Shown: positions 2,470 through 56,941, counted from the first letter of the whole stretch. The stretch is 56,941 bases of DNA, filler included, from Sphacelaria rigidula (GCA_964200075.2; 8 parts of 8 records of this genome joined end to end with filler, not necessarily neighbours in it); one strand, 5' to 3'. Notes: generated by a model from the sequence alone, not told the origin. Program-made: numbers and translations.

Positions 2470-2625
2470 AGGGGTAGGGGTGCAGTCATGATCTTTCATC
2501 TCGTCAACATCAAACCATTGACAGGACACTCGTTCAAAGTCATGACGAAGCACGCCGGGTTATCGCCGTACCAGGCTCGTAATCACTGAGCGCGAAGTGC
2601 CGTAATGTGTTCGGTGAGTCGCCTG
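2470..2625 (-). mobile_element. Structured short interspersed element, subfamily A (long, diverged copy)
   Basis: Aligns by eye with the reverse complement of 23563-23706 (ACCATTG...GACGRAGCACGCCGGGTT...GCGAAGYGCCGT..TGTGTTCGGYGAGTCGC). Confidence 0.65.
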
Positions 2626-2958
2626 AGGGGTGCCTGCATCCTGCTAAAGTTGCTCGACCTGAGGCGTGCTGACTATACGGGCATTGCATGTGAATGGCAG
2701 CCTCGAACGAGTTGCTTCATTTTCTGCTATCGCCAATTCCAGAGACAGCCACGGGTTGCACTGCCTCGTGGGTGTCTCGCCATTTGGATACTTCGTAGTA
2801 CGAGCATCCCCTTTGCGCGGAGTTGAATTTCTCCTACCCCGAACAACATGATCTAGCTCGACAACCATCGTGGTTGCCGCAAAAAAACGCAACAAACAAA
2901 AAAAAGGGAACTTGGTTGTCTAGCTTCAGTCATATAAGCATTGAGGGAGGGCGGTGGG

Positions 2959-2996
2959 TGTACTCATGATCATGCTTGCCATAGTCATCAGACCAT
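2959..2996 (-). mobile_element. Structured short interspersed element, subfamily A (truncated, 15-bp TSD)
   Basis: TGTACTCATGATCATGCTTGCCATAGTCATCAGACCAT flanked by AGGGAGGGCGGTGGG at 2944-2958 and 2997-3011. Confidence 0.8.
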
Positions 2997-4478
2997 AGGG
3001 AGGGCGGTGGGGGGAGGGGGGGGGTACGTCACCATTTACTTCATTTTACTTAAATAAGTCGGAGGGGGTACAACACTTTTTTAATTCTCATCCGTTCTTT
3101 CTAGAGCCTTTTCATCCGTCCTTTTTAGAGGTTCACAAGTTAGTGAGACATAAAACAACCCGCGGGCGTGTCTTGACCAAACTCACGATAATATCGGAAT
3201 CCAACTCCAACTCGAGTATCGATGTTTGATGTCGCCGTCGGGTATGGCATCGCCGGCAACATATTCGACACAAAATGTTGGCCGACTAATATCGATAGCC
3301 AACAAACAAGAATCGATCCCAATTATGGAATCGTGACCAAGATAGTTGCGCTGCCAATCAAAGTGTGCGTGATACCCCAAGATACTTGTGCTGCTGCAGA
3401 GTAAACGCAAACGTATATCATATTGCATGTATTGGCTTCGACCCGTGAACATACTGTGCAACGCCTTCGCAAGACGTAATGTGCGCAAACCTGCGTATGT
3501 CGGAAGAAAAAGTCGACACATTTCCCCCAAGTATCGTTAGTGCTTTTTGCCCAATATGGAACCTAGCGCATTCAATTAAAGCACCTCATGTCGAATGCAT
3601 TTCAGTGAAGCTCTATGTGGGAATGTGCTCGTCCCCAAGGGCGTTATGCTCGCGAATTTCGACCCTCGTTTTCATGTGCACGGACGTCCCGACGTCCGTG
3701 AAAGCATGTTCCCAGCGTCGTTGAAACGAGTGCTTAAGGGTTCATGTGTTCGTATTTTCGAGCGAAAGTCGGGAGTTCCACGGGGATCGAAAAATCGGAA
3801 GCAGCGTAGTTTCGTTCAAGAGCAGTGACCAATGCAGCTTCCTGTTTTCTGTTCCTTTCGATTGAATACCCCATGACGGGTGACAGGGAATGGCCGACGA
3901 TACGCCGTAGCAGCCGGTCGTTGCAGCGCTTGGCCAATGTTGGCCAGCATGCCTTGTTGCAGTTCTGCCCAAAGGTGTATAATAACACCGAGTATGCACG
4001 TACACAGGGAGAAGGCAAAATATGTGGCTGATCACGTTGGTGTGGTAGTTGTTGATGTTTGCGTCGCTGCGTGTGCTGAGAGTCTTGGGAATGGCACGCG
4101 TCTCTACCGCTGAGGGACGTGCGCTGACTTTGCAAGCGACTAGATAGTGATTTTTCGGTAGCGGTACACTCTTCAGGCGAAAGGGTTCCTAAGGCTCGAC
4201 ACTTGGGGCGAGATGTTTGTAATCGAAAAGCTCCTGAAGTGAAGAGTCCCGGGAACGAATTGTGCATCCCTACCGTGGAACCACCCCAGAGCGTCGTTCC
4301 GGCGATTTTTCCCTCGTGGTTTTGATCACATGGTTTATGGTTGCCATCTGCACTATTATGCATAATTGGTGTTGTCCCCGTTGTTTGAATGTCGATGCTC
4401 CTCACACGTTTAAGCCACTTGCTGACTGCCAACTAAGCTTCTGATCATGGTGTGATTGCTTCTCATCTCGCTGTGCAG

Positions 4479-6859
4479 GGTCCGCAGCGAATGATCGCTC
4501 GGAGTTGTGCAGATTTTACGACGCCAACGGCGGCCCCGAATGGCCTGAAAGCACACGGGAAAACTGGAAAAAACTTGATGACCTATCGCACTGGTCTAGC
4601 ATTACCGTGAATGCGGAGGGGCGTGTCATCAAGCTGGATCTGTCTGGTGACCCTTTCAATGAGAACAGGTTGACGGGTGAGCGACGAGGTTGTACGCGGG
4701 ATATTTCAATCAAAGTTTTAGGTCGGCCCCTGCCATGACCTTCCTTGACTGTAGTAGCAGGGGACTTCAGTACGACCAACCTTTTAATCAGGCGTTTTGA
4801 GGCCTTGTCGTGGTTGGGTCTGGTTGAGGTTATTGATAGGCCGAGCATTCAGAAGTACATGATCGGATTCGAGCCGTTTCATCGTGCTGTCCTTGCTCCC
4901 TGTAAGTCAATGGCGTAATTATTGGCAACATCTAGTCATGAGACAGGTGTTGGGTTGGCGTGCGTAGATGCTAGCGACCTGCCGTAATTATTTCCTACCC
5001 ATTTGATATATATGGACATTGCAGTACGGTCTGGACTCTCTCGCGAGAAATCTGCATCTGAAAGAACCGAATGAGATATGCTGTAGGATGTGTAAGCCTT
5101 GGACCAAACCATTTGAAACCATGTCGCCCAAATGTAGAATTCCAGCAACCGAGAGTTTCTGCACATAACAGCCGATCATCGAAATTTAGGATGGAGCTTT
5201 TCATTGAGGATGAAAACCCGGAGGAGAAACATAATCGTATACACACCAAATCTTCGAAATATGGTTTCATTCCTTCATCTTCATCTACTAGTAACGATTA
5301 TCGGATCGCCGAAATTCCCCCACATTCGTTTCTCATCTAGGACCTCGATATTTCGGTCATCGAAATCAAAATTTGTATGATGCGTAGTACTTGTCAATAG
5401 CTACTAGTAGATGAAGGAATGAAACCATATTTCGAAGATTTGGTGTGGATACGAAGATGTTTATCCTCCGGTTTCTCATCCTCAATGAAAAGCTCCATCC
5501 TCAAGTTCGATAATCGACTGTTACATACTATGATGCTCAAAAATCGTTCAAACAAGTGACACGAAGACCGTACTTTTTGTGTCATAATACAGTCCTATCA
5601 TCAGTTGGATCTCGTCACGTCGTCTTTCCTTGGCCTGGCTTGCCCTGACCTGACTTGTTAGGTATGTCGACCTATGCAGTTTCCTTTTTTTTGGTTTTTG
5701 GCCTATTATCGCCCGAGTACATGTAGCAGATGGTTTTTCTAATTTTTGTTTGTCATTTGGAGCCGTACGTATACCCACTGTGTCCTGTTTTTCGCTGACA
5801 TGTTCGTAGAACTCTGCCCTTCGGAGGCCTTCCGCCGTATCTTCCTGTTCGTTGGCGTATCACTCATGTTTTGCATGTAGTCTGTCTTTTTTGCCTAGTG
5901 CTTTGTGGTCACGATCGCTGCAGTTCTGGAAGATGGCTAATATAGGAAACATTCCACGGTTCGGGGCAAAGGCGTTGTCCAACGACTTTCTGACGGTCTT
6001 CCCTCCGATTTCGCCCAATCGCTTGGGCGATAAGTCTGTTTTACGAAAAACTTTGCCGGCTAACTTTCGACTTCGGTGACCCCGGCTACACTGCAATAGT
6101 GGAGCAGCTCCCACCTGTTAGAGAGTAGCATCCATAATGACGCTGTGCCATGGATTCCGTGGTCCACTCGCAGCTGTTATCCAACTGACGCCCATTGTTT
6201 TTACATATATTTCCTAGTGGTCGACGTAGGGTCCATTTGAGGCTGATCGGCATCCAACGGATCAAACGAACCCACACTATAGAAATTTTAGGTCAATATC
6301 CGTGAGCAAAATACAGTAATGATATTTTTTCGATATTTGAAGCACCCAGAACCTGCAGGCTACTATGAAGTGTTAGCCTCCTGTGGACTTGGATGAACAC
6401 AAGATTGCCCTCCCCACCGCGGGAAGCAGAGCACCGCGTCGGTTTTCGTAGATAGTGAGCGCCTTGTTCAAGGCTCCAGCATTTGGCTCTACTCGTTCAC
6501 CACTCACCTTTACACTGGCGTCCGTATTAGCTTCAATGCCTGAAGACAACTGCTCGCTACTTCTCCTGAATACGAACACTCTGAAGTGCTCAAACTCTAC
6601 GTTGTTCAGCACGGCTGAAAAGCGCCCAAACTGTGGGAGAATGCTTGATCCCGCTAGTCGTCGGGTGCTGAGGAGTGCTCCCGTGCGTAAAATTGGATCC
6701 CCTCTGAGTGGATGCACATTCGCAAGAGATGAACTGTAGCTCGATACCTTACCGCGGGTTCCATGCGTGATTTGCCTTTGTCATTTCCAGGTTCACTATT
6801 GGAGCTTGCAGAGCTCGGTGCGCTCGAGGAGTTGAACCTGTCCCGATGCCAGTTGACAG
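4479..6859 (+). CDS. Leucine-rich repeat protein, brown-algal LRR / LRR-ROCO-type N-terminus (partial; exons 4479-4676, 6791-6859)
   Basis: Exon 4479-4676 (cag|...|gtgag, phase 1-1) gives SAANDRSELCRFYDANGGPEWPESTRENWKKLDDLSHWSSITVNAEGRVIKLDLSGDPFNENRLTG, an LRR N-cap. Exon 6791-6859 (ccag|...|gtgag, 69 nt, phase 1-1) gives GSLLELAELGALEELNLSRCQLTG, one LxxLxLxxxxLxG repeat. Confidence 0.9.
5166..5523. mobile_element. Foldback / MITE-like element in LRR intron
   Basis: Inverted arms of about 125 bp (5166-5293 and 5402-5523); the ORF track reads MELFIEDE.PE.KH.RIHTKSSKYGFIPSS on both strands. Confidence 0.8.
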
Positions 6860-6981: not shown

Positions 6982-7031
6982 GGGGGGGGGGGTGGGGGTG
7001 TACTCATGTTCATGCGTGCTATAGTCATCAG
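6982..7031 (-). mobile_element. Structured short interspersed element, subfamily A (at contig end)
   Basis: G tract followed by GTACTCATGTTCATGCGTGCTATAGTCATCAG, running into the gap. Confidence 0.75.
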
Positions 7032-7131: not shown

Positions 7132-7174
7132 GATTATGGCATGCATGATCATGAGTACACCCCTCCCCCCCCCC
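7132..7174 (+). mobile_element. Structured short interspersed element, subfamily A (at contig start)
   Basis: GATTATGGCATGCATGATCATGAGTACA followed by a C tract. Confidence 0.75.
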
Positions 7175-13436: not shown

Positions 13437-13602
13437 GAGGCCCTCGATACCCCTGAGTAGGATATCAACGTGTAGCTTTAAGCACATGTCAGTGATGAGA
13501 CGACGAAAAGCACACACACGGAATGAAAAATTGGCCAAGTTAAAGCGAATGATTAAAGCCACTCTTAATCCGCACCCAACTCTCAATCTCACGAAAACCC
13601 TG
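13437..13602 (+). repeat. Dispersed repeat, about 165 bp
   Basis: Matches 35727-35888 (TGAGTAGGA..ACGTGTAGCT.TAAGCACA..CACACGGAATGAAAAATTGGCC.AGTTAAAGCGA) and partly 35658-35723. Confidence 0.8.
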
Positions 13603-14261: not shown

Positions 14262-14775
14262 CCCCCCCCCCCGAAGCATCAAATGTCAACTTCAGGGGCC
14301 TTGATGTCTTCTGTCCGCTTTGTGGAGTTCCCTGACAGAACCAAATGTCCGAATGACCATTGTCGAGAATTGCCATCACTTCTTCCTTTCAATCGCTAGT
14401 ACCAAGCCCAGGTGAGACATGCTACGCCGTAAAAGAGCATAGACCGAAGGTAAAAGCACCAGGAAGTTCACAGGCGTTCTGACCGCAAGTCAGTTGAGTT
14501 AACGCTGCAACATGTGAACCGTTGTATTGGGTAAGTTCCCCCCCCCCGCTTTTACACTGTCTCTTTGAAGTGCCGAGACTAAGAACAACCGATATTTCCC
14601 AACTTTAATAAAGGACAGAATGAGTGTGTGTGCTACTCATTTTCACTACTCCCTGGCCCACCATTCATCCCTTGAAGGCATCGGGGGGGAGGGCGCGCCG
14701 GTGTGTGTGTGTGTGTGTGTGAGGGGGGGGGGGTGCTATATCCCGTTGTACACCGGACATGATCCAATATCTCAC

Positions 14776-15099
14776 CGTGTCAATGTGGCTGTTAAAAAGG
14801 ACCCTTGGTACATGTCCCGGCCAGTGCGCGTAAACGTTGTGCCTGACCTGACCGCCAACGACCGATCTCTGCGGTGCCACGGGTTGCAACTGCACTGTCC
14901 AGCCTCGCTCCTCGAGAAGCTGCTTCAGCGCGATGGCCATCGGCTGCTCGTGCCCAGACAAGGACTCGATGTTGATCAGCCGAACAGCCAGTGCAACTAG
15001 CGGATCGCCGTCATGATCATGATTTTTTTGGTCGTCATCATCGGCGCGTTGTGAGCCGCATGTAGCAACCTGCTCATTGATGATACCACCCCTTTCCAT
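14776..15099 (-). CDS. M20-family metallopeptidase / acetylornithine deacetylase (ArgE/DapE-like), N-terminal exon
   Basis: LVALAVRLINIESLSGHEQPMAIALKQLLEERGWTVQLQPV...HNVYAHWPGHVPRVLFNSHIDT ends at a GTGAG donor. IESLSGHE and the metal-binding NSHxDT(V) motif are typical of M20. No further exon found on this contig. Confidence 0.9.
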
Positions 15100-17540
15100 G
15101 GTGATGAATCTGGCAAAACAGCTACTTCAGCCCGTATAGACTGTGACTCTCAGCCTGTACGGTTTGACAGGTGCTATACGAGTACCAGCACCCAGGAAAT
15201 GCGATTTAAAATAAGCTTTCCTTCGGAATTTATTACCATGTTCCATCACTCTTCCACTGGGATTATAATTATCTACTTATAGTCTTTGTAGTAATACGCA
15301 AACTTCTGGGCTGGAGCTACTTGTGGATACTAATGAAGCTTTGTTATGTATGTTTAATGTAAGTGATTGCCGCAGTGTCATTACTTGACATGGACGTGGA
15401 ATCCCTCCCGGACTGCGATTTTTTCTCAAGTATTATGTGATGATGAAAAAACAAAAAGTAATAGGCAAACTTAAAATTGGCATCTCTTCTTTTTCAGCGT
15501 GAAATGACCATCGCACAGTACAGTTAGTAGGGTACTGTATACCACGACGACTTGATGGCGTTGGTCTCTCCACTGGTATCTGCTTAATTGATCTTCATAA
15601 TATATAGTGAGGAACCTGCGAACCGAAAGCATCCAACGGTGAAGCCCAATACGCGGATATCGAGGACATCAGCGGCGCGCTACATATTGCACATCGTCAG
15701 CGCTGAGGGTGCAACGTTACGCGTTACCCTACTCGTCATAGATGAGACTTGCCGCTTGGGCGAGGCTTGCTCCCAGTCTGTCGTCGTTTGCTGTGAACTC
15801 ATCGCACAAGATCCTCTTCGCTGGCAGCAGAAGTTCGTGTACCTCGATGATGGCTGCCTCGTGGCAAACGCTCTTGTCGCAAAGGTGCGTACTGACGATA
15901 CTACTGTTGTGTACATCGCATGCTCCAGGTGCAACTGAGATCGGAATATCTCTCCCCTACATTGGACATTCGCCACGTCGCGCGTAAGTCCAAAATTGGT
16001 GGTCCCTCAATCGCTGTATGTTATCGATGCTCGCCCTAATACCGAAGCGTATCCCATGCCGTAGTTTGATGAATGTATGAGCTAGGCTGGTACATACCAT
16101 GGTTAAGGGGGCGTGTGGAACGATCCGCTCAAACCTGCGGTGACTGGATACTGGATACACAAACGGCCTGACGACAGGTTGTTTCAGTGTTGTTCCTTTT
16201 CAATAGTACTCCGGAGTATGGAGGCGGTATTTTCGGAGGTTAGGCCTCCTAACACAGCACACCTGGCATCTGATGGTGCTGAAACTTGACCTATGTGCGT
16301 CTTGAGGCCGCAGGTTGGTGTTGACGCAGCAGTTTCGGCGACCCAAGGCGTTTCGTGCGCTGCTTGGATTAAAAAGGACCATCATGCACGATGGTCCCGT
16401 GATTCCAAAAATTAGATGGCTTTCTGATGACAACTGTAGGGGAACCGACATGAAACCCACCCCGAGGCAGCGGCAGATCTTGCTAGCTTTGTTGTTTACG
16501 TCGAACCCCTGTCGATCGAGGCTGGCACCAAGACGGGAAATAATCACCACTTAAGGTTCTCCATATTTTAGAGGGGGATGGCATTGGCTCTTATACGCCG
16601 TGTCGAGCAAGACACGGCCGTGCAGCCGAGCCGAGCCGAACACGGTCTTTTGCCAAGGACCACTGTGGAGTTGTTCGGGGAGGGGGTGACGTCTCCTTCC
16701 AGAGAGTGCCAGACTTACGTGGCCGGGTACCACGATGATCTCACGAGGACGAGAGCGGTTGCTGTGGAATTCCTCTAGCAGAATCAACCGGAAATTCGTT
16801 CAGCAGACGCCCCCACGTCAATATCTTGAGCTTTCTTCGACAGTCGTCTCATCGCCCTTGTGCGGAGTTTTTTTTAATCTCACTTGGTTCCAGACTAGGA
16901 CAGAGTGCAAGTTGCACTTTTCAATTTTACGGGTGGATCGCAGGTATTCCATCCGTCCCGAGTCTTGATTCGTATGGTACAGTCAGTATGACAGTACTCG
17001 TTCTACTGCCGACTGTAATAGTAGCACACAGTTAGCTAATAACGGTCGCAATATCCTTCGTGGATGAAGTGCTTGTTCCCTCCTCAGTGTTTATATCCTT
17101 TCCATCCGGCTGCTCCAGTTTGTGCAGAGGTCTGCAGCGCCACCTTGCCGTGATAATGTGGGCCCGTCTCTCCCAAGGACGTTTGCCTCTTGAGTCTTAT
17201 CATTTTGTAGGCCTTGGAGCATGCCCGTCTTCAGTGACCGCGACGAATGGTGACTTATAATCGCGGTAAAATGCCTCCATATTAGTGAAAAGGAACAACA
17301 CCGGTTTGGCGTGTTTCTGTCGACAAGACAAGTCTGCAACAGGACAGCCTGGAAAGATTGCCCATTCCTGCGCGACTGCATGTGTTTTCAGTGATGTCTT
17401 GGCAAACGCACGTGAAGGTGTGACTTGGTGAAATGTTGACATGTCGCTATTACAGCGCAGCGTACGCACAGGATTTCGCCGCTTATCACGAATTATGGCT
17501 CATTGATGGGTGTACTGATTGTCGCACATTAACTAGTCCA

Positions 17541-17700
17541 CAGCACCGCAGAAGGAAGTGGACTACTAAAATAATTTGAAGAAGGAAAAACTCCTGTGGT
17601 GGTCTTCCTGCTGTGTGACCCCGGCTGATGCGCCCACATATACCGAAAGGTGTAGGCTGGCGTCCAGAATAAATGGGATGACAGCACACACAACACACAC
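17541..17700 (+). mobile_element. tRNA-derived SINE, 3' fragment
   Basis: GCACCGCAGAAGGAAG...TGTGTGACCCCGGCTG...GGCGTCCAGAATAAATGGGATGACAGCACACACAAC matches the 3' half of 25961-26327. Confidence 0.8.
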
Positions 17701-20269: not shown

Positions 20270-20615
20270 CACCCCTTGATCGATTGACTCCCAAAATTCG
20301 ATTCCAGCGCACATAGTGAATCTCGCGCCGCTCGATACATCTCTGTGTAGTCAAAATGATTTCCTGAGCTCTCATACGTTTTTTTAGCAGCTATCTATCC
20401 CTGCGGTGTGCGAAAATCGATCTTGCGCTTTCAGACGACGGGAGAAACGCCAAGCCTGCCGCAGATCCTAAATCAAACACGACCCTTTCACAGATTCTTA
20501 TACCGTTGGATCACCCCTCGATCTATCGATTTCCAAGAGCTGATCTCAGCTCACAGTGCAATCTCGCGCCACTTGATGCATCTCTGTGTGGGCGAGATGA
20601 TTTCGTGAGCTCTCC
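20270..20615. repeat. Diverged direct repeat pair
   Basis: AATCTCGCGCC.CT.GAT.CATCTCTGTGT...ATGATTTC.TGAGCTCTC near 20320 and 20560. Confidence 0.65.
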
Positions 20616-21017
20616 TTTGTATTTGAAGCAGTTATGATCTCTTACTGCACGCGACAATCGATATGGCGTTCTCAGATGGCATCTGCCGTAGATGCTTAAT
20701 GAAATCCGAACCTGTTGGGTATCGGATGTTCCGCCGTGCGATCCACAGTTCAAGTGTCAAGCCCACCTGCCGTGGATCCTAAATTGTATGAGACGCCATC
20801 ACGGATCACCTGGTTGGTACCTGAGGCTCTTGCGGCCCGTCAGGATCTTTAGAAGCGCTAGATACTCACCACACGCTTGGCAACCCTTCGACTCGCTTAA
20901 ACATATCTTACACAAGATCGGAAACGTGGAGTTTTGCACCTGTACAACAGCACCCGAAGAAGACACAACGGCTACAGAGTCGTCACGTGACTTTTTCAAC
21001 CTTGTTTAGATGGAAAG

Positions 21018-22950: not shown

Positions 22951-23019
22951 GGACTCATTTGTTGCTTGGCTTAGTCGTTTGACCGTTGACTACGTACGCA
23001 TCCATTTCGAGACGGAGCA
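22951..23019 (-). mobile_element. Structured short interspersed element, subfamily B
   Basis: GGACTCATTTGTTGCTTGGCTTAGTCGTTTGACCGTTGAC...GCATCCATTTCGAGACGGAGCA after a G-rich tract. Confidence 0.8.
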
Positions 23020-23562
23020 GGATACTTGAATAAGCAGGCAGAGAAACAAGGGAAGGAACAACAGAAACTACAGGAACCACAGAAAAGAGGGAAAGGGGAA
23101 AAAGAAGAGGAGAAACACGCTGGGCAAAGATCCAGAACTGGTTACGAGAAACCCCCCGACAGGTAGTGTATACTCCGAACGAACTCACACCACAGATGAC
23201 GCTTACATGTTTTCCTCACACTACTTATACTTACCGCCCCCCGCTCCTCACCAAGAAAAATATCTCGAAGCATTTCCCCTCCTGTGGTATCTCTTATCCA
23301 CTTCACCATATGTCTGAATTTCTCGCTATCCACTCCCACACTTATCCGATCGACAACACACGCAGATAATAAACGCTTTTGGTGGTGACAACCACACACA
23401 AGTCCCCGCCCCTCCACCCATGAGGCAAAGCGTAACCCGTGGCTGTCTCCGGAAGTGGCAACATCAGAAACTGAAGCAACTCATTCAAGATTTTCATCTA
23501 TAAGCAAGATATTTAGTGCGCGTCGGGCCGAACAATCGTAGTAGGATGCAGCTCGCCGTTTC

Positions 23563-23719
23563 TGCGACTCGCCGAACACAAGACGGCGCTTCGCCCTTGG
23601 TGATCGCGAGTCTGGTGGTCCGGCGAAAACCCGGCGTGCTCCGTCCCGGCCTTTTAGGAATACAATGCCAATGGTCTTGTGACTGCGGTATGCAAGATCA
23701 TGAGTACCTCGCCCTCCCC
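23563..23719 (+). mobile_element. Structured short interspersed element, subfamily A (longest copy)
   Basis: GCGACTCGCCGAACAC...CCGGCGAAAACCCGGCGTGCTCCGTCCCGGCC...AATGGTCTTGTGACTG...GATCATGAGTAC plus a C-rich tail. Confidence 0.8.
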
Positions 23720-23966
23720 GTCCTTCTCACGGCCTCTCACAAGAGGGGGAAATGTATGTGGACTAAACGAATAGGACATGAAAGCGTTCGGTACGTTAGA
23801 TAGTGGCAAGAAAGCGACCGCCATACTAGGAGATAGATGGTGGCCACATACAGCGAAACAGGAAGAGGATGCGTAAGATATATATATATATATATTGTCG
23901 TGAAGGGTAAAAAAAACGCATTGAGCTCCCGAATGATGGAGGTGTCTCTATTTGGAGTAGGGAACG

Positions 23967-42315: not shown

Positions 42316-42381
42316 GTTATTCTCTGTTGCTGGCCCTAGTTATTTAACCATTGGCCAAGCATCCCTTCCGAGACGGAGCAC
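42316..42381 (-). mobile_element. Structured short interspersed element, subfamily B (diverged)
   Basis: TGTTGCTGGCCCTAGTTATTTAACCATTGGCCAAGCATCCCTTCCGAGACGGAGCAC. Confidence 0.75.
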
Positions 42382-42530
42382 TGTCCCTACTCCGAATAGA
42401 GACGTCTCCAACTTTTGGGTGCTCATTGCGTTTCGTCCATGTCCTACACAAAAATATCTTACATATCTTATCCTCTTCCTGTTTCGCCCCCTGTAGAGCA
42501 GGAGGGGGTACTCGCGGGGGGGAGGGGGGC

Positions 42531-42593
42531 GTACTCAGTTGTTGCTTGCCTTAGTCGTTTGACCATTTACCACGCATCACTTTCGAGACGGAG
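42531..42593 (-). mobile_element. Structured short interspersed element, subfamily B
   Basis: GTACTCAGTTGTTGCTTGCCTTAGTCGTTTGACCATTTACCACGCATCACTTTCGAGACGGAG between two GGGGGGAGGGGGG tracts. Confidence 0.8.
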
Positions 42594-42681
42594 GGGGGGA
42601 GGGGGGGGGGGCGAGCCTATTTGTTGGTTGTCCGCGTATTTTGAAAAATAAACCCGCACACCTTCCGAGAACGGGAGAGCG

Positions 42682-45135: not shown

Positions 45136-45365
45136 CATGTCTCCCCAACAGAGGTGCTGACGATGACATGACGCGGACGATGCTAACTGTAACAAGAAAG
45201 GGGGCTACATTACTATACAAAGCATTAGGTCAAAGCATACGTCATTTGCACATGTCTCCCCAACAGAGGTGCTGACGATGACATGACGCGGACGATGCTA
45301 ACTGTAACAAGAAAGGGGGCTACATTACTATACAAAGCATTAGGTCAAAGCATACGTCATTTGCA
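45136..45365. repeat. Exact 115-bp tandem duplication
   Basis: 45136-45250 is repeated at 45251-45365 (CATGTCTCCCCAACAG...CGTCATTTGCA). Confidence 0.92.
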
Positions 45366-48344: not shown

Positions 48345-48425
48345 GCCGCGGCTGGTGCGCCCACATATACTGAAAGGTGGAGACCGGCGTCCAGAATAGA
48401 TGGGACGACAACACACACAGCACAC
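48345..48425 (+). mobile_element. tRNA-derived SINE, 3' fragment
   Basis: CGGCTGGTGCGCCCACATATACTGAAAGGTGGAGACCGGCGTCCAGAATAGATGGGACGACAACACACACAGCACAC. Confidence 0.8.
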
Positions 48426-51379: not shown

Positions 51380-54156
51380 CTGGAGATAGTCTAGTACACG
51401 GCAAGCGCCGTCATTGCCTAGACTGAGGAGGAAATTGTGCTCTGGCACCAGTCCAAGACAGCAAACCGCGAGGCTGTGTAAATGGCTCCATCTCCGTTGG
51501 AGTGTGACCTCGGAGTCTGGTAACCTGAGATGTGGAAATGTGTACATGAGTGATGCCGCAGTAGGGGTGAAATTTTCAGTCCAAAAGCTTTCTGAGGCTG
51601 CACACTAAGGCCCGGATATTTGTCATCGAGAGGCTGCAAAAACAAAAAGCCTCAAAAGAAAAAAAAAGGGCACTCCTATGATGGCATTGCTTGCATACAT
51701 ACTTCCTCTGTCCCATAGGTAAAGGTACCTAAATTTGTACTGGCCCTTAACGATGTCCGCTCGTTTGTTTGTTTTTTCAATGAACTCTACGGCGTTTTTT
51801 GGGTTGAGAAAATGTGTGTAAAATTTGCAGCTCGTGCTTGAACCATGCCGCCGAACAGCTGCAAAAAAAGTAGTCGGCCCAAAAATGACAGTTTTTTTCG
51901 CCCCTCTCCGTACTCATTTGTTGCTTGCCTGAGTCATTTGACCATTGACCACGCATCCCTTTCGAGACGGAGCACCCCTCTTCGAGGAGAAAAAAAGTGT
52001 CGCTTTTTTTGTTTTCTTTAATCACCCCCGCCTCCACTGGGGCTTGCTGCCAGGAAGACCCACGCGATTAAAAAAAAGAAAACGACATATTTTTTCCCCT
52101 GGGAAGGGGGCAAAAAACGGTCATTTTTGGGCCGACTACTTTTTTTGCAGCCGTTCGGCGGCATGGTTCAAGCACGAGCTGCAAATTTTACACGCATTTT
52201 CTTAACCCAAAACACACCGTAGAGTTCATAAAAAAAAAAAGGATCGGACATCGTTAAGGGCCCGTACAAATTTAGGTACCTTTACTTATGGGACAGAGGA
52301 AGTATATATGTATATATTCAAGCATAGATTACTTCGTGAATCTTGGGTCTTGGACTCGACGCTGTCGACTGCTACTGCTAGCACTGTACCGCTGCGTAGA
52401 GCAGGACGGACTGAAAACACCCTGGGACAACGACCAATACACCAAGGGTTCAGTGATCAGCCATGCCGCGTGCGACTTGTTACGGTAACGCTTTAATTTT
52501 GTGACTGGCGCACGGCGTTTTTTCACCTTCTTGGCACACTTCTACCCCTTTCGCTTGCTCAGAACGAACCCGTGGTCTCAAGGGATCAATCACCCCAGAT
52601 CTCTCACGGTACACGCGTGTACATTCTCTTGGTCCCGCGGACTGGATGATGACCACTCCCACCGCGTCGAATCTCGTCAAATGAACATTTTGGCCTTCCA
52701 TATTTCTCACGTTTACAAACGATGGAAAGCAGATACGTTTGACGAAACATCCCGAATGCATCCATCTGGTGGCAATCGATCGAGAGTTCTTCCCGACCTA
52801 ATGGCTTCAGTTGTCCCAATAGACCACCGTGGCACGGCAGATACACCAAGATACGGCCATGTCATATTGAATCGGGCATTCAACATGATGCGTACGAAGC
52901 ACTCACTGTCGCGTCACGATGCCGTCTGACCGTTCTCCCGCAGGGGCGAGACGTTCCGATGCAGAGGTGGAGTTTCTACAGAAGACGGACACGGTGCCGT
53001 CGCTGTCCCCGCAGTACATGGACCATTCTTCTCCTCCCTCGACGCACGCCACCGTCGGCCACACTTCCATCAACGGGATTTAGGGGTCCAGATCAACGAG
53101 ATCGCAAGGATCGGAAAGCAACACACTAGACGAGTCAGCTGGCAAGACGAGAACATCTGGTGAGAAAATGACGAGCAGAGAAGCAACCGGTGTGGCGTAC
53201 TGTACTGTCCTGTAGCTACTGCGTGCGCTTCCCGATCTCGAAGAGAGATCTGTCTCCCCCCGAATCAAAAGTGCGATGGCGTGATTCTTGCGGTGGATAT
53301 ATTGGCGAATTGCTTCACGGGGGAAATTCCCGAGGGATTCTGCCACAGCGGTAGGTAATTGCCTTGTCGGCTACACTTTGAATCTCTTACCGGCGGAGAG
53401 GCTGGCCTGCCTGGAGTAGAGGGAGAGGGATTTTACACAGCAAAAGAACTGGAATCGTAGAAGCTTGCGCCCTCTTTGGGGACGCCAGAGTCTCACGCTG
53501 CCGTCTCTAGCTGTGGATATCAATGTGTTCCCGCCGGCGAACGCTAATCCTGTGATACCCCCCTTGTGCTCCGCTAGGGTTTGCACACACGATTCTTTAG
53601 ATGGAGCTCCTCCCCACACGGTCCATACCTTCACCGCAAGAATGCCGCGGCCAAAAAGCGGCAGGAGCAGCAGCAGCAGCAGCAGCAGCAGCATACGGGC
53701 GCGAGAGACTTCTTATTCGGATAGCCTACAATCCATTGAATTTTATAAGCTGCTGCTCGAGTGCGTGTGTAATACAAAACAAATCCGGTTCGTCCACTTT
53801 ATCGCCGAGCATGGGGGGCGTTTATTGCGTGTCTATTTCGCTTTGTGTGGCTCCCCACGTATTTTGAGTGTTAGACGGGAATTCGGCCGACACACGTGGG
53901 CTAAGATACGGCGGAGATGAAATCCACTCCATCCGCGGCATACATTTCTTACCTTAATGGTATGGTCAGTTGCTCCACTGAAGACAAGTGGTCCTCCGAG
54001 TGCCCCGTAGGTGCCTCGCGGAGTGTGTGCCAAGCACATGACTGCACCTTTATGAGGCAGTGACGTGGTCATGGCCTCCTCTGGACGGTCATTCTTGTTC
54101 GCCCCTCCGAATAGGTTGCGTGGCACGATGCGCCAGAATATCACGGCGCCGTTGCT
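51380..54156 (-). CDS. WD40-repeat protein (partial; exons 54156-53953, 53628-53391, 53063-52907, 51524-51380)
   Basis: Phase-compatible exons with WD repeats: PHKGAVMCLAH...VFSGATDHTIK|VW...TLAEHKGGITGLAFAGGNTLISTARDGSVRLW...|VWPTVACV...MYCGDSDGTVSVF...|...HLHSLAVCCLGLVPEHNFLLSLGNDGACRVLD. Confidence 0.88.
51702..52302. mobile_element. Tc1/mariner-type (Stowaway-like) MITE with long TIRs
   Basis: TA|CTTCCTCTGTCCCATA...TATGGGACAGAGGAAG|TA; inverted arms of about 200 bp (51702-51904 and 52106-52302); lies in a WD40 intron. Confidence 0.9.
51910..51975 (-). mobile_element. Structured short interspersed element, subfamily B, nested in the MITE
   Basis: GTACTCATTTGTTGCTTGCCTGAGTCATTTGACCATTGACCACGCATCCCTTTCGAGACGGAGCAC flanked by CCCCTCTCCG (51901-51910) and CCCCTCTTCG (51975-51984). 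Confidence 0.85.
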
Positions 54157-54824
54157 CTGTGGGTGGAGAGAGAAACGAGTACACCGCGCGCAGCACATGG
54201 ATCCGCTGTTGCGCCGTGGTGAAGTAACGATGCCTTAGCACACTGCGTCGAGGGATGGGTCACGCTGCCCGACTTATTGGGGACGGCATCGCTTGATGGG
54301 GGAGACAGTGGGGACATACGGCTCCTGAGCCAACATACGAATGTCGCGCGGTCGGACGTGTGCAAGACAAGTCCTTCGAAAAGGCACCATACGATATGCT
54401 CTATTTTCTGCGCACTCAAGTCAGAGCACACAGCACAAAAGGGACGACGAATCAGGGAGTGGGGTGTGTGCATGCAGCGCATGGGCGCGACACCCCGCCT
54501 CGGATGCAAACCGAGGTCATCTGCACGGAGATTTAGGACCAGCGAACCAAAGCGATCTCCACGTCTTCAATGATCCGAACCAAAAAGGGCCGATGTTTGT
54601 GACGATACTCCAACATCTTGTCTCCTTCTTGTCTCAGTACCAGTCGCACGACAGAAGCGCACCCACCCGGCGAGCACACGTACTGCCGCATGGACCCGAG
54701 TGATTGATGAGAAGTCATTACAAGTAGTTACACAGTAGATGTTTTCTCTAGCTCAACCTGACTCTCGTTCAAGATTATTCCCACATCATTGGATCTAATA
54801 TCACAACTGTGAAAAAGTGATTCC

Positions 54825-56380: not shown

Positions 56381-56861
56381 CAGCGCGTCTTTGAGACACA
56401 AGTATCGAGACGTATCACTTAGTGTTATGTGTAAATGTGATTTCGTGGAGCGTTATGTCACATTTGAATATTTGGTACCACCGCCAAGATCTGTACCGGA
56501 ACACGTTTCACTCCATCTCGTGGCAAAACATGCGCTACGAGCCTCGTGCCCGAGGAAAAGCCCCCTCTCAATGTTGATAGGGCTGTATGGAAGAAAATTT
56601 TGAAAGATAAGGCTGGAGTAAGGTGGAGTAAAGAAGCCGAGAAAATATGGAAGGAGATATGAGGGAACCAAGACGAAATACTGTTCATAGAACATGCTGA
56701 GTTAATTGCGTTTGTTCATGTAATTAGGCTGGAGTCTCTGAAAAAATAATGATGGAGGACTCCATGTCTTGTAAGGAATAGCAGGGACGGTATTGGAAAG
56801 ACGAGCCTACGTCTGTGACGACGGGTTCGAGAGTTCGGACTCATGTGCGCAAATAATGATA

Positions 56862-56941
56862 GTGTGTGTTGTTGTTGTGTGTTGTCGTCCCATCTATTCT
56901 GGGCCCCAGTCTGCACCTTTCGGGATATGTGGGTGCATCAG
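56862..56941 (-). mobile_element. tRNA-derived SINE, 3' end (cut by window end)
   Basis: TGTGTGTTGTTGTTGTGTGTTGTCGTCCCATCTATTCTGG...CACCTTTCGGGATATGTGGGTGCATCAG. Confidence 0.8.

Follow-up and report, generated by a model that had tools for sequence, protein, structure and literature searches.

A 66-nt unit dispersed in Sphacelaria rigidula DNA is probably the 3′ terminus of an RTE-X-like LINE and overlaps the end of its ORF

In stringent LINEs, the ORF2 protein binds the 3′ stem-loop of its own RNA and the partner SINE shares that end, as described in the accessible sections of PMC4176376, PMC3747384, and PMC6007223. A closely similar arrangement has been catalogued in the brown alga Ectocarpus. 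According to the accessible parts of PMC12477816, RTEX-1/2_Ec32 have a single EN-RT ORF, a (C)n 3′ end, C-rich target-site duplications (TSDs), 5′-truncated copies, and lengths of 5.5 to 5.9 kb, and no other EN-RT LINE among the 11 LINE rows of the Ectocarpus table has a (C)n end, RTE-1/2 ending in (CAA)n and CRE-1 in (CA)n. The same parts list two non-autonomous elements, RTEX-N1_Ec32 (607 bp) and RTEX-N2_Ec32 (188 bp), with heads of unknown origin, a 3′ end of 60 to 100 bp in common with the LINE (83% over 60 bp for N1), and C-rich TSDs, and they report RTE-X as the most abundant TE group in Ectocarpus, with 16,418 copies. RTEX is a recognized Repbase clade in the sections of PMC5753468 available. 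Here, we analyzed a short element that an initial annotation, made from the sequence of one stretch of DNA, had described as an abundant, structured unit that it could not assign to a known family. With a probability of about 0.88, we conclude that this 66-nt unit forms the 3′ terminus of a LINE of ∼5 kb, most likely a brown-algal RTE-X, in which one ORF encodes an APE endonuclease, an RT, and a C-terminal Cys/His motif and whose protein would recognize the terminal RNA.

The window, that is, the whole 56,941-nt stretch that was analyzed, is composed of eight eukaryotic pieces of ∼7030 nt with the spacer N44-TTAATTAATTAA-N44 between them. About 12 copies on six of the eight pieces had been listed in two subfamilies, A and B, and each listed place turned out to be a copy or its G-run flank. 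The B copies matched the copy at 51910 with blastn E values of 1e-14 to 1e-21, well above chance, and the GTACTCA end said to be common to most copies is exact in 7 of 12. While the copies were present as listed, several positions and extents had to be revised. For instance, 23563 is internal to a 292-nt copy (23416–23707), 2470 is the end of a 290-nt copy, and the copies at 23967 and 42316 are actually ∼270 and ∼180 nt long. An nhmmer search of the window added a 13th copy of subfamily B, old, short, and decayed (42619–42672, minus strand, E 0.001, 71% to L004, a LINE introduced below), that was absent from the original list.

To identify the element from which these copies derive, a metagenome collection was scanned with one pattern spanning both subfamilies. 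The scan yielded two loci, L001 and L002, and both are LINEs that carry the element at their end, followed by a C run. Each contains one ORF, of 1253 aa in L001 and 1426 aa in L002 (stop to stop), and both ORFs, when scanned, matched Pfam Exo_endo_phos and RVT_1 (RVT_1 E ≤ 1e-30), an APE endonuclease followed by a non-LTR RT; the nearest relatives of solved structure are L1 ORF2p and R2. A protein scan of a genome collection gave a third LINE, L004, with a 1382-aa ORF and the same end and C run. Among these three LINEs, the 66-mer differs at 0 to 2 positions, L002 and L001 being the pair with 2. The LINE is at least 5.0 kb long here, and neither L002 nor L004 has an ORF above 96 codons within its first 1000 nt. 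At the other end, the ORF continues through the 66-nt unit as 20 codons, a stop, and 4 nt. Its terminal reading is ...NGAPSRKGCVVNGQMTKASNK, and the stop codon lies within TGAGTAC, 4 to 5 nt before the element end. Since RTE-type LINEs have very short 3′ UTRs, this overlap with the ORF may not be unique. The strand that the annotation had chosen from its G-U bias is the coding strand of the LINE, as seen in L001 and L002.

Extension of the longest copies in the 5′ direction, which the annotation had suggested as a way to find an RT-encoding partner, led into the EN-RT ORF. Two longer B copies run upstream into it (tblastn E 2e-17 and 2e-12). The one with E 2e-12 is the ∼270-nt copy at 23764–24032 (plus strand; 76.6% over 278 nt to L001), and the other is the ∼180-nt copy at 42316–42494 (minus strand; 81% over 170 nt, tblastn 67% over 57 aa), which has an in-frame stop; both are 5′-truncated and decayed. 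An internal piece of the same ORF, corresponding to residues ∼1000 to 1047 of P0002, lies at 56546–56692 (plus strand; tblastn E 6e-9, blastn E 9e-13). Together, these matches indicate that subfamily B is the truncated LINE itself, and a candidate 188-nt non-autonomous B family was rejected because 23764–24032 proved longer and coding. The shorter B copies, all on the minus strand, are truncated at 22951–23019 (69 nt), 32833–32888 (56 nt, adjoining an A copy), and 42531–42593 (63 nt, with a 14-nt C-rich duplication on each side). The B copies of the window align to the LINE over 56 to 278 nt, every one at its 3′ end, and no complete LINE was found in the window.

The same shape was apparent in sequencing runs, from which contigs were placed on L001 at a likeness of 80%, some runs with a word share of 0.09 being left out. 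Run X1 contained 0.83 of the sampled words of the A copy of the window, as did X2, and these two runs may derive from the source of the window itself. The X1 contigs cover 30 of 30 L001 bins. The two 3′-most bins have summed depths of 7.4 and 7.8 million versus at most 1.5 million elsewhere, a difference of at least 5-fold, where the depths are sums of contig depth and not copy numbers. Runs X15, X18, and X7 are likewise 3′-heavy along L001. We set X18 and X7 aside as evidence of transcription, since they are contigs whose RNA origin is a guess.

The closest named relatives of the LINE ORF are Ectocarpus proteins. One of these, the NCBI protein P0005, named Ectocarpus sp., shows 69% identity along the final 294 aa and carries an identical C-terminal peptide. 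These relatives, together with the algae metagenome label of one run that contains words of the A copy, suggest a brown-algal host. We weighed the class of the element against described families. Penelope-like/Chlamys and CRE elements were rejected as its identity, since the ORF that the unit accompanies is APE-RT and the ends of those families are (A)n or (CA)n. The LINE most likely belongs to the brown-algal RTE-X group, a label borrowed from the described features of RTEX-1/2_Ec32 rather than from a tree. Several other scan results were discarded as termini: L005 is an internal LINE fragment, L006 and L007 (genome scan) are weak matches of 17 to 23 aa, and L003, the one hit in the viral collection, is a chance match whose flanks are without similarity. 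L010 is a more remote RT, at 34%. L004 (G001:C43, a 5.3-kb contig) and L005 (G002:C178) are short stand-alone contigs in two bacterial assemblies, presumably contamination from the algal host.

We also observed that a ∼400-nt 5′ non-coding region is shared between L002 (sense 361–760, approximately L002:4351–4750 on the minus strand) and L004 (approximately 500–900) at 83 to 92% identity, which exceeds most of the ORF of these two LINEs (mostly 63–88% per 100 columns); the region has 1- to 2-nt indels and no long ORF. Just upstream, L002 sense 201–320 folds with a z of −4.8 and a similar L004 window with −2.5. The conserved region is possibly a promoter, a translation-entry element, or a ribozyme, and an E-value-level search of Rfam with L004 returned no match. 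Upstream of the part shared with L002, the L004 contig starts with an imperfect tandem repeat of ∼80 nt (L004:6–146, 82%) that may be the LINE 5′ end or its flank.

The annotation had offered two readings of the element, and these results separate them. The first, in which the unit serves a non-tRNA SINE/LINE pair as its 3′ recognition element and the end is C-rich, is essentially correct in that a LINE and a partner were found, recognition itself being suggested by analogy. The second treated the unit as an unclassified structured-RNA mobile element. A self-standing RNA of this sort, ribozyme-like, or the end of a single-strand DNA transposon that is not a LINE, would fit the strand-biased fold described below. 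It would also fit the Rfam searches, in which the window at gathering level and 23380–24060 and L004 at E-value level gave nothing near threshold and no covering family. However, in all three long loci that contain it, the unit is the physical 3′ end of the LINE, joined without interruption and in frame to an EN-RT ORF, and the longer window copies extend into that ORF. This refutes a non-LINE origin, and we consider such an origin extremely improbable. Identification of the unit as the terminus of an EN-RT LINE also comes close to the outcome, a match to the end of an already described transposon family, that the annotation had named as counting against its own proposal.

Subfamily A has a different composition. 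Its two apparently full-length copies, at 23416–23707 (plus strand, 292 nt) and 2483–2772 (minus strand, 290 nt, more decayed), have a common 5′ start. When compared to L001, L002, and L004, the match was confined to profile positions 230 to 291 (E 0.002 for L001 and L004). It starts at the GTGCTC strand of the predicted closing helix, such that the terminal ∼62 to 70 nt are shared. As family A matches the LINEs solely at the terminal unit, we interpret it as their non-autonomous partner. The remaining copies are a 5′-truncated one of 93 nt at 32742–32834 (minus strand), a truncated one of 39 nt at 2960–2998 (minus strand) with a 15-nt C-rich duplication on each side, and two 3′ ends cut by the spacer, at 7000–7031 (minus strand) and 7132–7158 (plus strand). 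ARAGORN found no tRNA in the window, a relaxed run giving wrap-around artifacts only, and Rfam searched with 23380–24060 to E 10 returned no relevant match for the head of family A. With one regular expression for Pol III signals, a B-box-like motif was seen in one of the two copies and no A box. Family A is hence described here as SINE-like in behavior and is not classed as a strict SINE. It was not found in the two assemblies that carry L004 and L005, a result that is uninformative. A hammerhead suggested by CTGATGA in the copies at 2960 and 7000 was rejected, as no GAAA follows it and two other A copies are without CTGATGA.

The C-rich tract noted beside the end of the copies was confirmed: the next 20 nt are at least 60% C in 8 of the 10 copies examined versus 0.2% of background 20-mers. 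The annotation had suggested that it might be a C-rich tail. Two of the 10 copies have clear C-rich duplications on both sides, of 15 and 14 nt; one further copy is borderline, and in seven none rises above background, several of these being decayed or nested. Because the flanks of the copies are C-rich and are duplicated in two, we interpret the tract as mainly target-site DNA and not an encoded tail, besides which the RNA may still carry a short C tail. Copies also occur in clusters: 23416–24032, where a B copy lies at most 60 nt after an A copy; 32742–32888, where a B copy abuts an A copy; and 42316–42672, where three B copies lie within at most 360 nt. Such clustering is expected if C-rich earlier insertions draw later ones.

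The copy on which the annotation was centered, 51910–51975 on the minus strand, agrees in sequence with its quotation. It comprises the last 66 nt of the LINE (the last ∼20 codons, TGA, and GTAC), its 5′ truncation falling on the border of the predicted closing helix. Compared with the L001 and L004 ends it has one difference in 66 positions, and it gives a tblastn match to the ORF C terminus. This copy is an exception to the C-rich flank, with 10% C in the next 20 nt and G-rich flanks on the sense strand. A probable 7-nt TSD, CCCCTCT, at 51901–51907 (plus strand) with a second copy at 51975–51981, has a polarity opposite to that of the usual C-rich flank and is borderline, since its score of 7 is the 99th percentile of background. 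The copy is hosted by a TA-flanked inverted-repeat element of 605 nt (51700–52304), with ∼200-nt arms that are 91% complementary and extend to the TA ends. This element is separate from the LINE; we take it to be a Tc1/mariner-type MITE, with termini that resemble Stowaway-type ends.

The annotation had further proposed a three-helix fold, strand-specific and under selection. Folding of three intact B-type ends gave z values of −1.7, −2.0, and −2.4 on the GAGUAC strand versus +0.4 to +1.1 antisense, in line with the claimed strand bias; 10, 9, and 4 of 200 sense-strand shuffles folded as well. The terminal window has the lowest folding z among 29 sampled along the ORF, and random synonymous recoding of the unit folds equally well in 19 of 2000 trials. 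A different test used synonymous changes between L001 and L002, whose overall identity is 79%. None of the 23 same-residue codons at the end carries one, versus 328 of 845 elsewhere (Fisher P 1.5e-5), and four-fold sites show the same pattern (0/10 versus 132/322, P 0.006); the lowest synonymous rate among 1145 background windows is 0.11. The test concerns one element pair, and a 3′-end exchange between families would mimic its result. Both differences between L001 and L002 within the unit alter a residue and keep the fold, one turning a U-G into a U-A pair and the other changing one loop base.

The covariation put forward for the fold did not reach significance. Within 15 rows, changes on both sides of a pair numbered 3 versus 1.0 in shuffled rows (42/500), and the covariation score was matched in 41/500. 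The “double compensatory change” reported for the copy at 42316 is one C-G to U-A pair, which creates the in-frame stop, and a neutral-decay simulation (assuming 70% transitions and divergences of 1–14 in 66, with 1–12 measured) produced one or more such changes in ∼50% of trials. As most window copies are dead, this sample has little power. RNAalifold gave no structure on 15 rows and, on 10 rows, only an interrupted second stem of 11 pairs. When 35 nt of upstream context were included, a local hairpin displaced the predicted closing helix (z −1.4 and −0.6), and all three family A copies compared disrupt a pair in the GNRA hairpin. In these models, the interrupted second stem appears to be the most secure helix, the GNRA hairpin would be specific to B, and the closing helix is uncertain. 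Given the covariation result, the three-helix fold is plausible but unproven.

An account in which the fold is incidental, and in which the terminal conservation stems from a needed C-terminal peptide or a recent 3′-end exchange between LINE families, would agree with the absence of covariation and with folding z values of only about −2. Moreover, 33 of the 83 homologs examined keep an open frame up to the end, an indication that complete translation is important. Yet a need for a peptide would leave synonymous sites free, and they are frozen. The unit is also retained by the non-coding family A, and a conserved position in distant homologs varies among N, D, and Y, residues that have codon letters in common and not chemistry. 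We judge this account to be improbable. The frozen synonymous sites argue that selection acts on the unit at the nucleotide level beyond what the protein needs, which we regard as well supported by the comparison of one element pair, and this part of the claim of a structure under selection stands.

We next considered where the short B copies begin. Five of the seven window B copies start within ∼6 nt of GTGCTCC, near the closing helix. Loose contig ends gather at L001 750–754 in three of four runs among the rows listed: in X1, 443 contigs have such an end behind L001 position 754, the consensus there being a G/C run, and the pattern is repeated at 750–754 in X18 and X7. These observations could be taken to mean that the ∼60- to 70-nt B copies are a discrete, promoter-less mini-retroelement, a bare recognition module that LINE enzymes copy and that has been amplified either from source copies of its own or from RNA cleaved at the foot of the closing helix. 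We think this doubtful, since the short copies have no common diagnostic changes relative to the LINE and their starts differ by several bases. Furthermore, CTCCGTCTC, found at the breakpoint, is the top-ranked pyrimidine 9-mer with 5 C in both purine-rich ORFs, so that microhomology with a C-rich target accounts for the truncation hotspot and is its simplest cause; stalling of the RT at the helix may be another. A truncation hotspot would in itself make the stub resemble a discrete element.

Lastly, we asked how far the terminal arrangement extends among homologous proteins. A C-terminal Cys/His motif followed by 55 to 259 more residues was present in 83 of 122, and 33 of these 83 end in a two-residue small/aliphatic pair, a residue X, G, and then 4 to 14 residues. 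Residue X is N, D, or Y in all but one of the 33, as compared with 11% among the 716 internal matches, and the number of residues that follow the Cys/His motif ranges from 98 to 157 in 32 of 33. In a quick, midpoint-rooted tree of 81 rows without clade labels, 24 of 27 rows of one branch (support 94) carry the terminal pattern, and most pattern-bearing rows lie outside the algal group, with RTs 44 to 52% identical to P0002. The codons for N, D, and Y all have the form NAY, which hints at an in-frame motif that is maintained at the RNA level. We defined the pattern after viewing the sequences, its rows are related, and it was read from proteins and not DNA, which makes it a lead only. Tentatively, then, a whole LINE subclade, comprising the brown-algal elements and relatives 44 to 52% identical in RT, might keep an RNA recognition signal in the last codons of its ORF with the stop at the priming end. 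The ribosome would thereby release the protein on its own site (cis preference), and the same fold might set the usual RT stop and seed ∼66-nt modules that give rise to non-autonomous families.

The window holds further repeats and genes. A second dispersed family with CA-rich repeat ends occurs at 17579–17698, 25962–26087, 48346–48425, and 56862–56941 (84–88% alike) and may be the (CA)n-ended CRE or “unknown4” of the Ectocarpus table. An inverted-repeat element at 5166–5523, with 115-nt arms that are 91% complementary and 128 nt apart, is likely a MITE. We also found a 91-nt family with two copies at 84% (13508–13598 and 35797–35887), an exact tandem duplication of 115 nt (45136–45365), and a 76-nt pair 241 nt apart (20319–20635). 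Two stretches on the minus strand are probable host exons: 14665–15126, which gave no Pfam hit and which we take to resemble an M20 peptidase, and 53833–54234, with a weak WD40 match (E 4e-4).

Taken together, we propose that the LINE protein would bind the folded terminal RNA, as the stringent LINEs UnaL2 and ZfL2 suggest, and would nick the G-rich strand of a C/G tract to prime reverse transcription there (TPRT). Early termination by the RT would leave the short B stubs, and family A, given that it carries the end of the LINE, would be copied in trans by the LINE machinery. There is no new class of RNA element here, and a false lead is thus removed; the 66-nt unit is instead a candidate cis signal of RTE-X LINEs. 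Because this signal lies inside an ORF, synonymous changes can separate its RNA role from its protein role, and the LINE offers a clean test of stringent recognition and cis preference.

How the fold, the ORF-overlapping signal, and the hotspot relate to published work was checked in literature that included few subscription papers and Repbase reports, and no earlier description of them was found there. The terms “stem-loop,” “hairpin,” and “secondary structure” are absent from the main text of PMC12477816, and its supplement rows, as far as available, make no mention of an ORF overlap. As described in the available sections on UnaL2 and ZfL2-1/2 (PMC4176376), the plant RTE/Au SINE pair (PMC6007223), and the pairs of PMC3747384, a structured 3′ end is common to a LINE and its partner, as it is here, where the structure is a predicted one. 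In those stringent pairs, the signal lies in the 3′ tail or UTR and the ends are, for example, (TTG)n, (TAA)n, or (TGTAA)n, whereas here it lies inside the ORF, with a 3′ UTR of 4 to 5 nt and a C-tract flank. Compared by description only, with the accessible parts of PMC12477816, our LINE, which probably comes from another species, resembles RTEX-1/2_Ec32 in its single EN-RT ORF, its (C)-run end, its C-rich target, and its 5′-truncated copies, and family A, at 290 to 292 nt, has a layout similar to that of RTEX-N1/N2_Ec32. The system is therefore of a known kind, a brown-algal (C)n-targeting LINE with a partner of a type already catalogued, and what appears to be undescribed is the signal overlapped by coding sequence, its frozen synonymous sites, the truncation hotspot, and the recurrence of a similar terminal motif in LINEs 44 to 52% identical.
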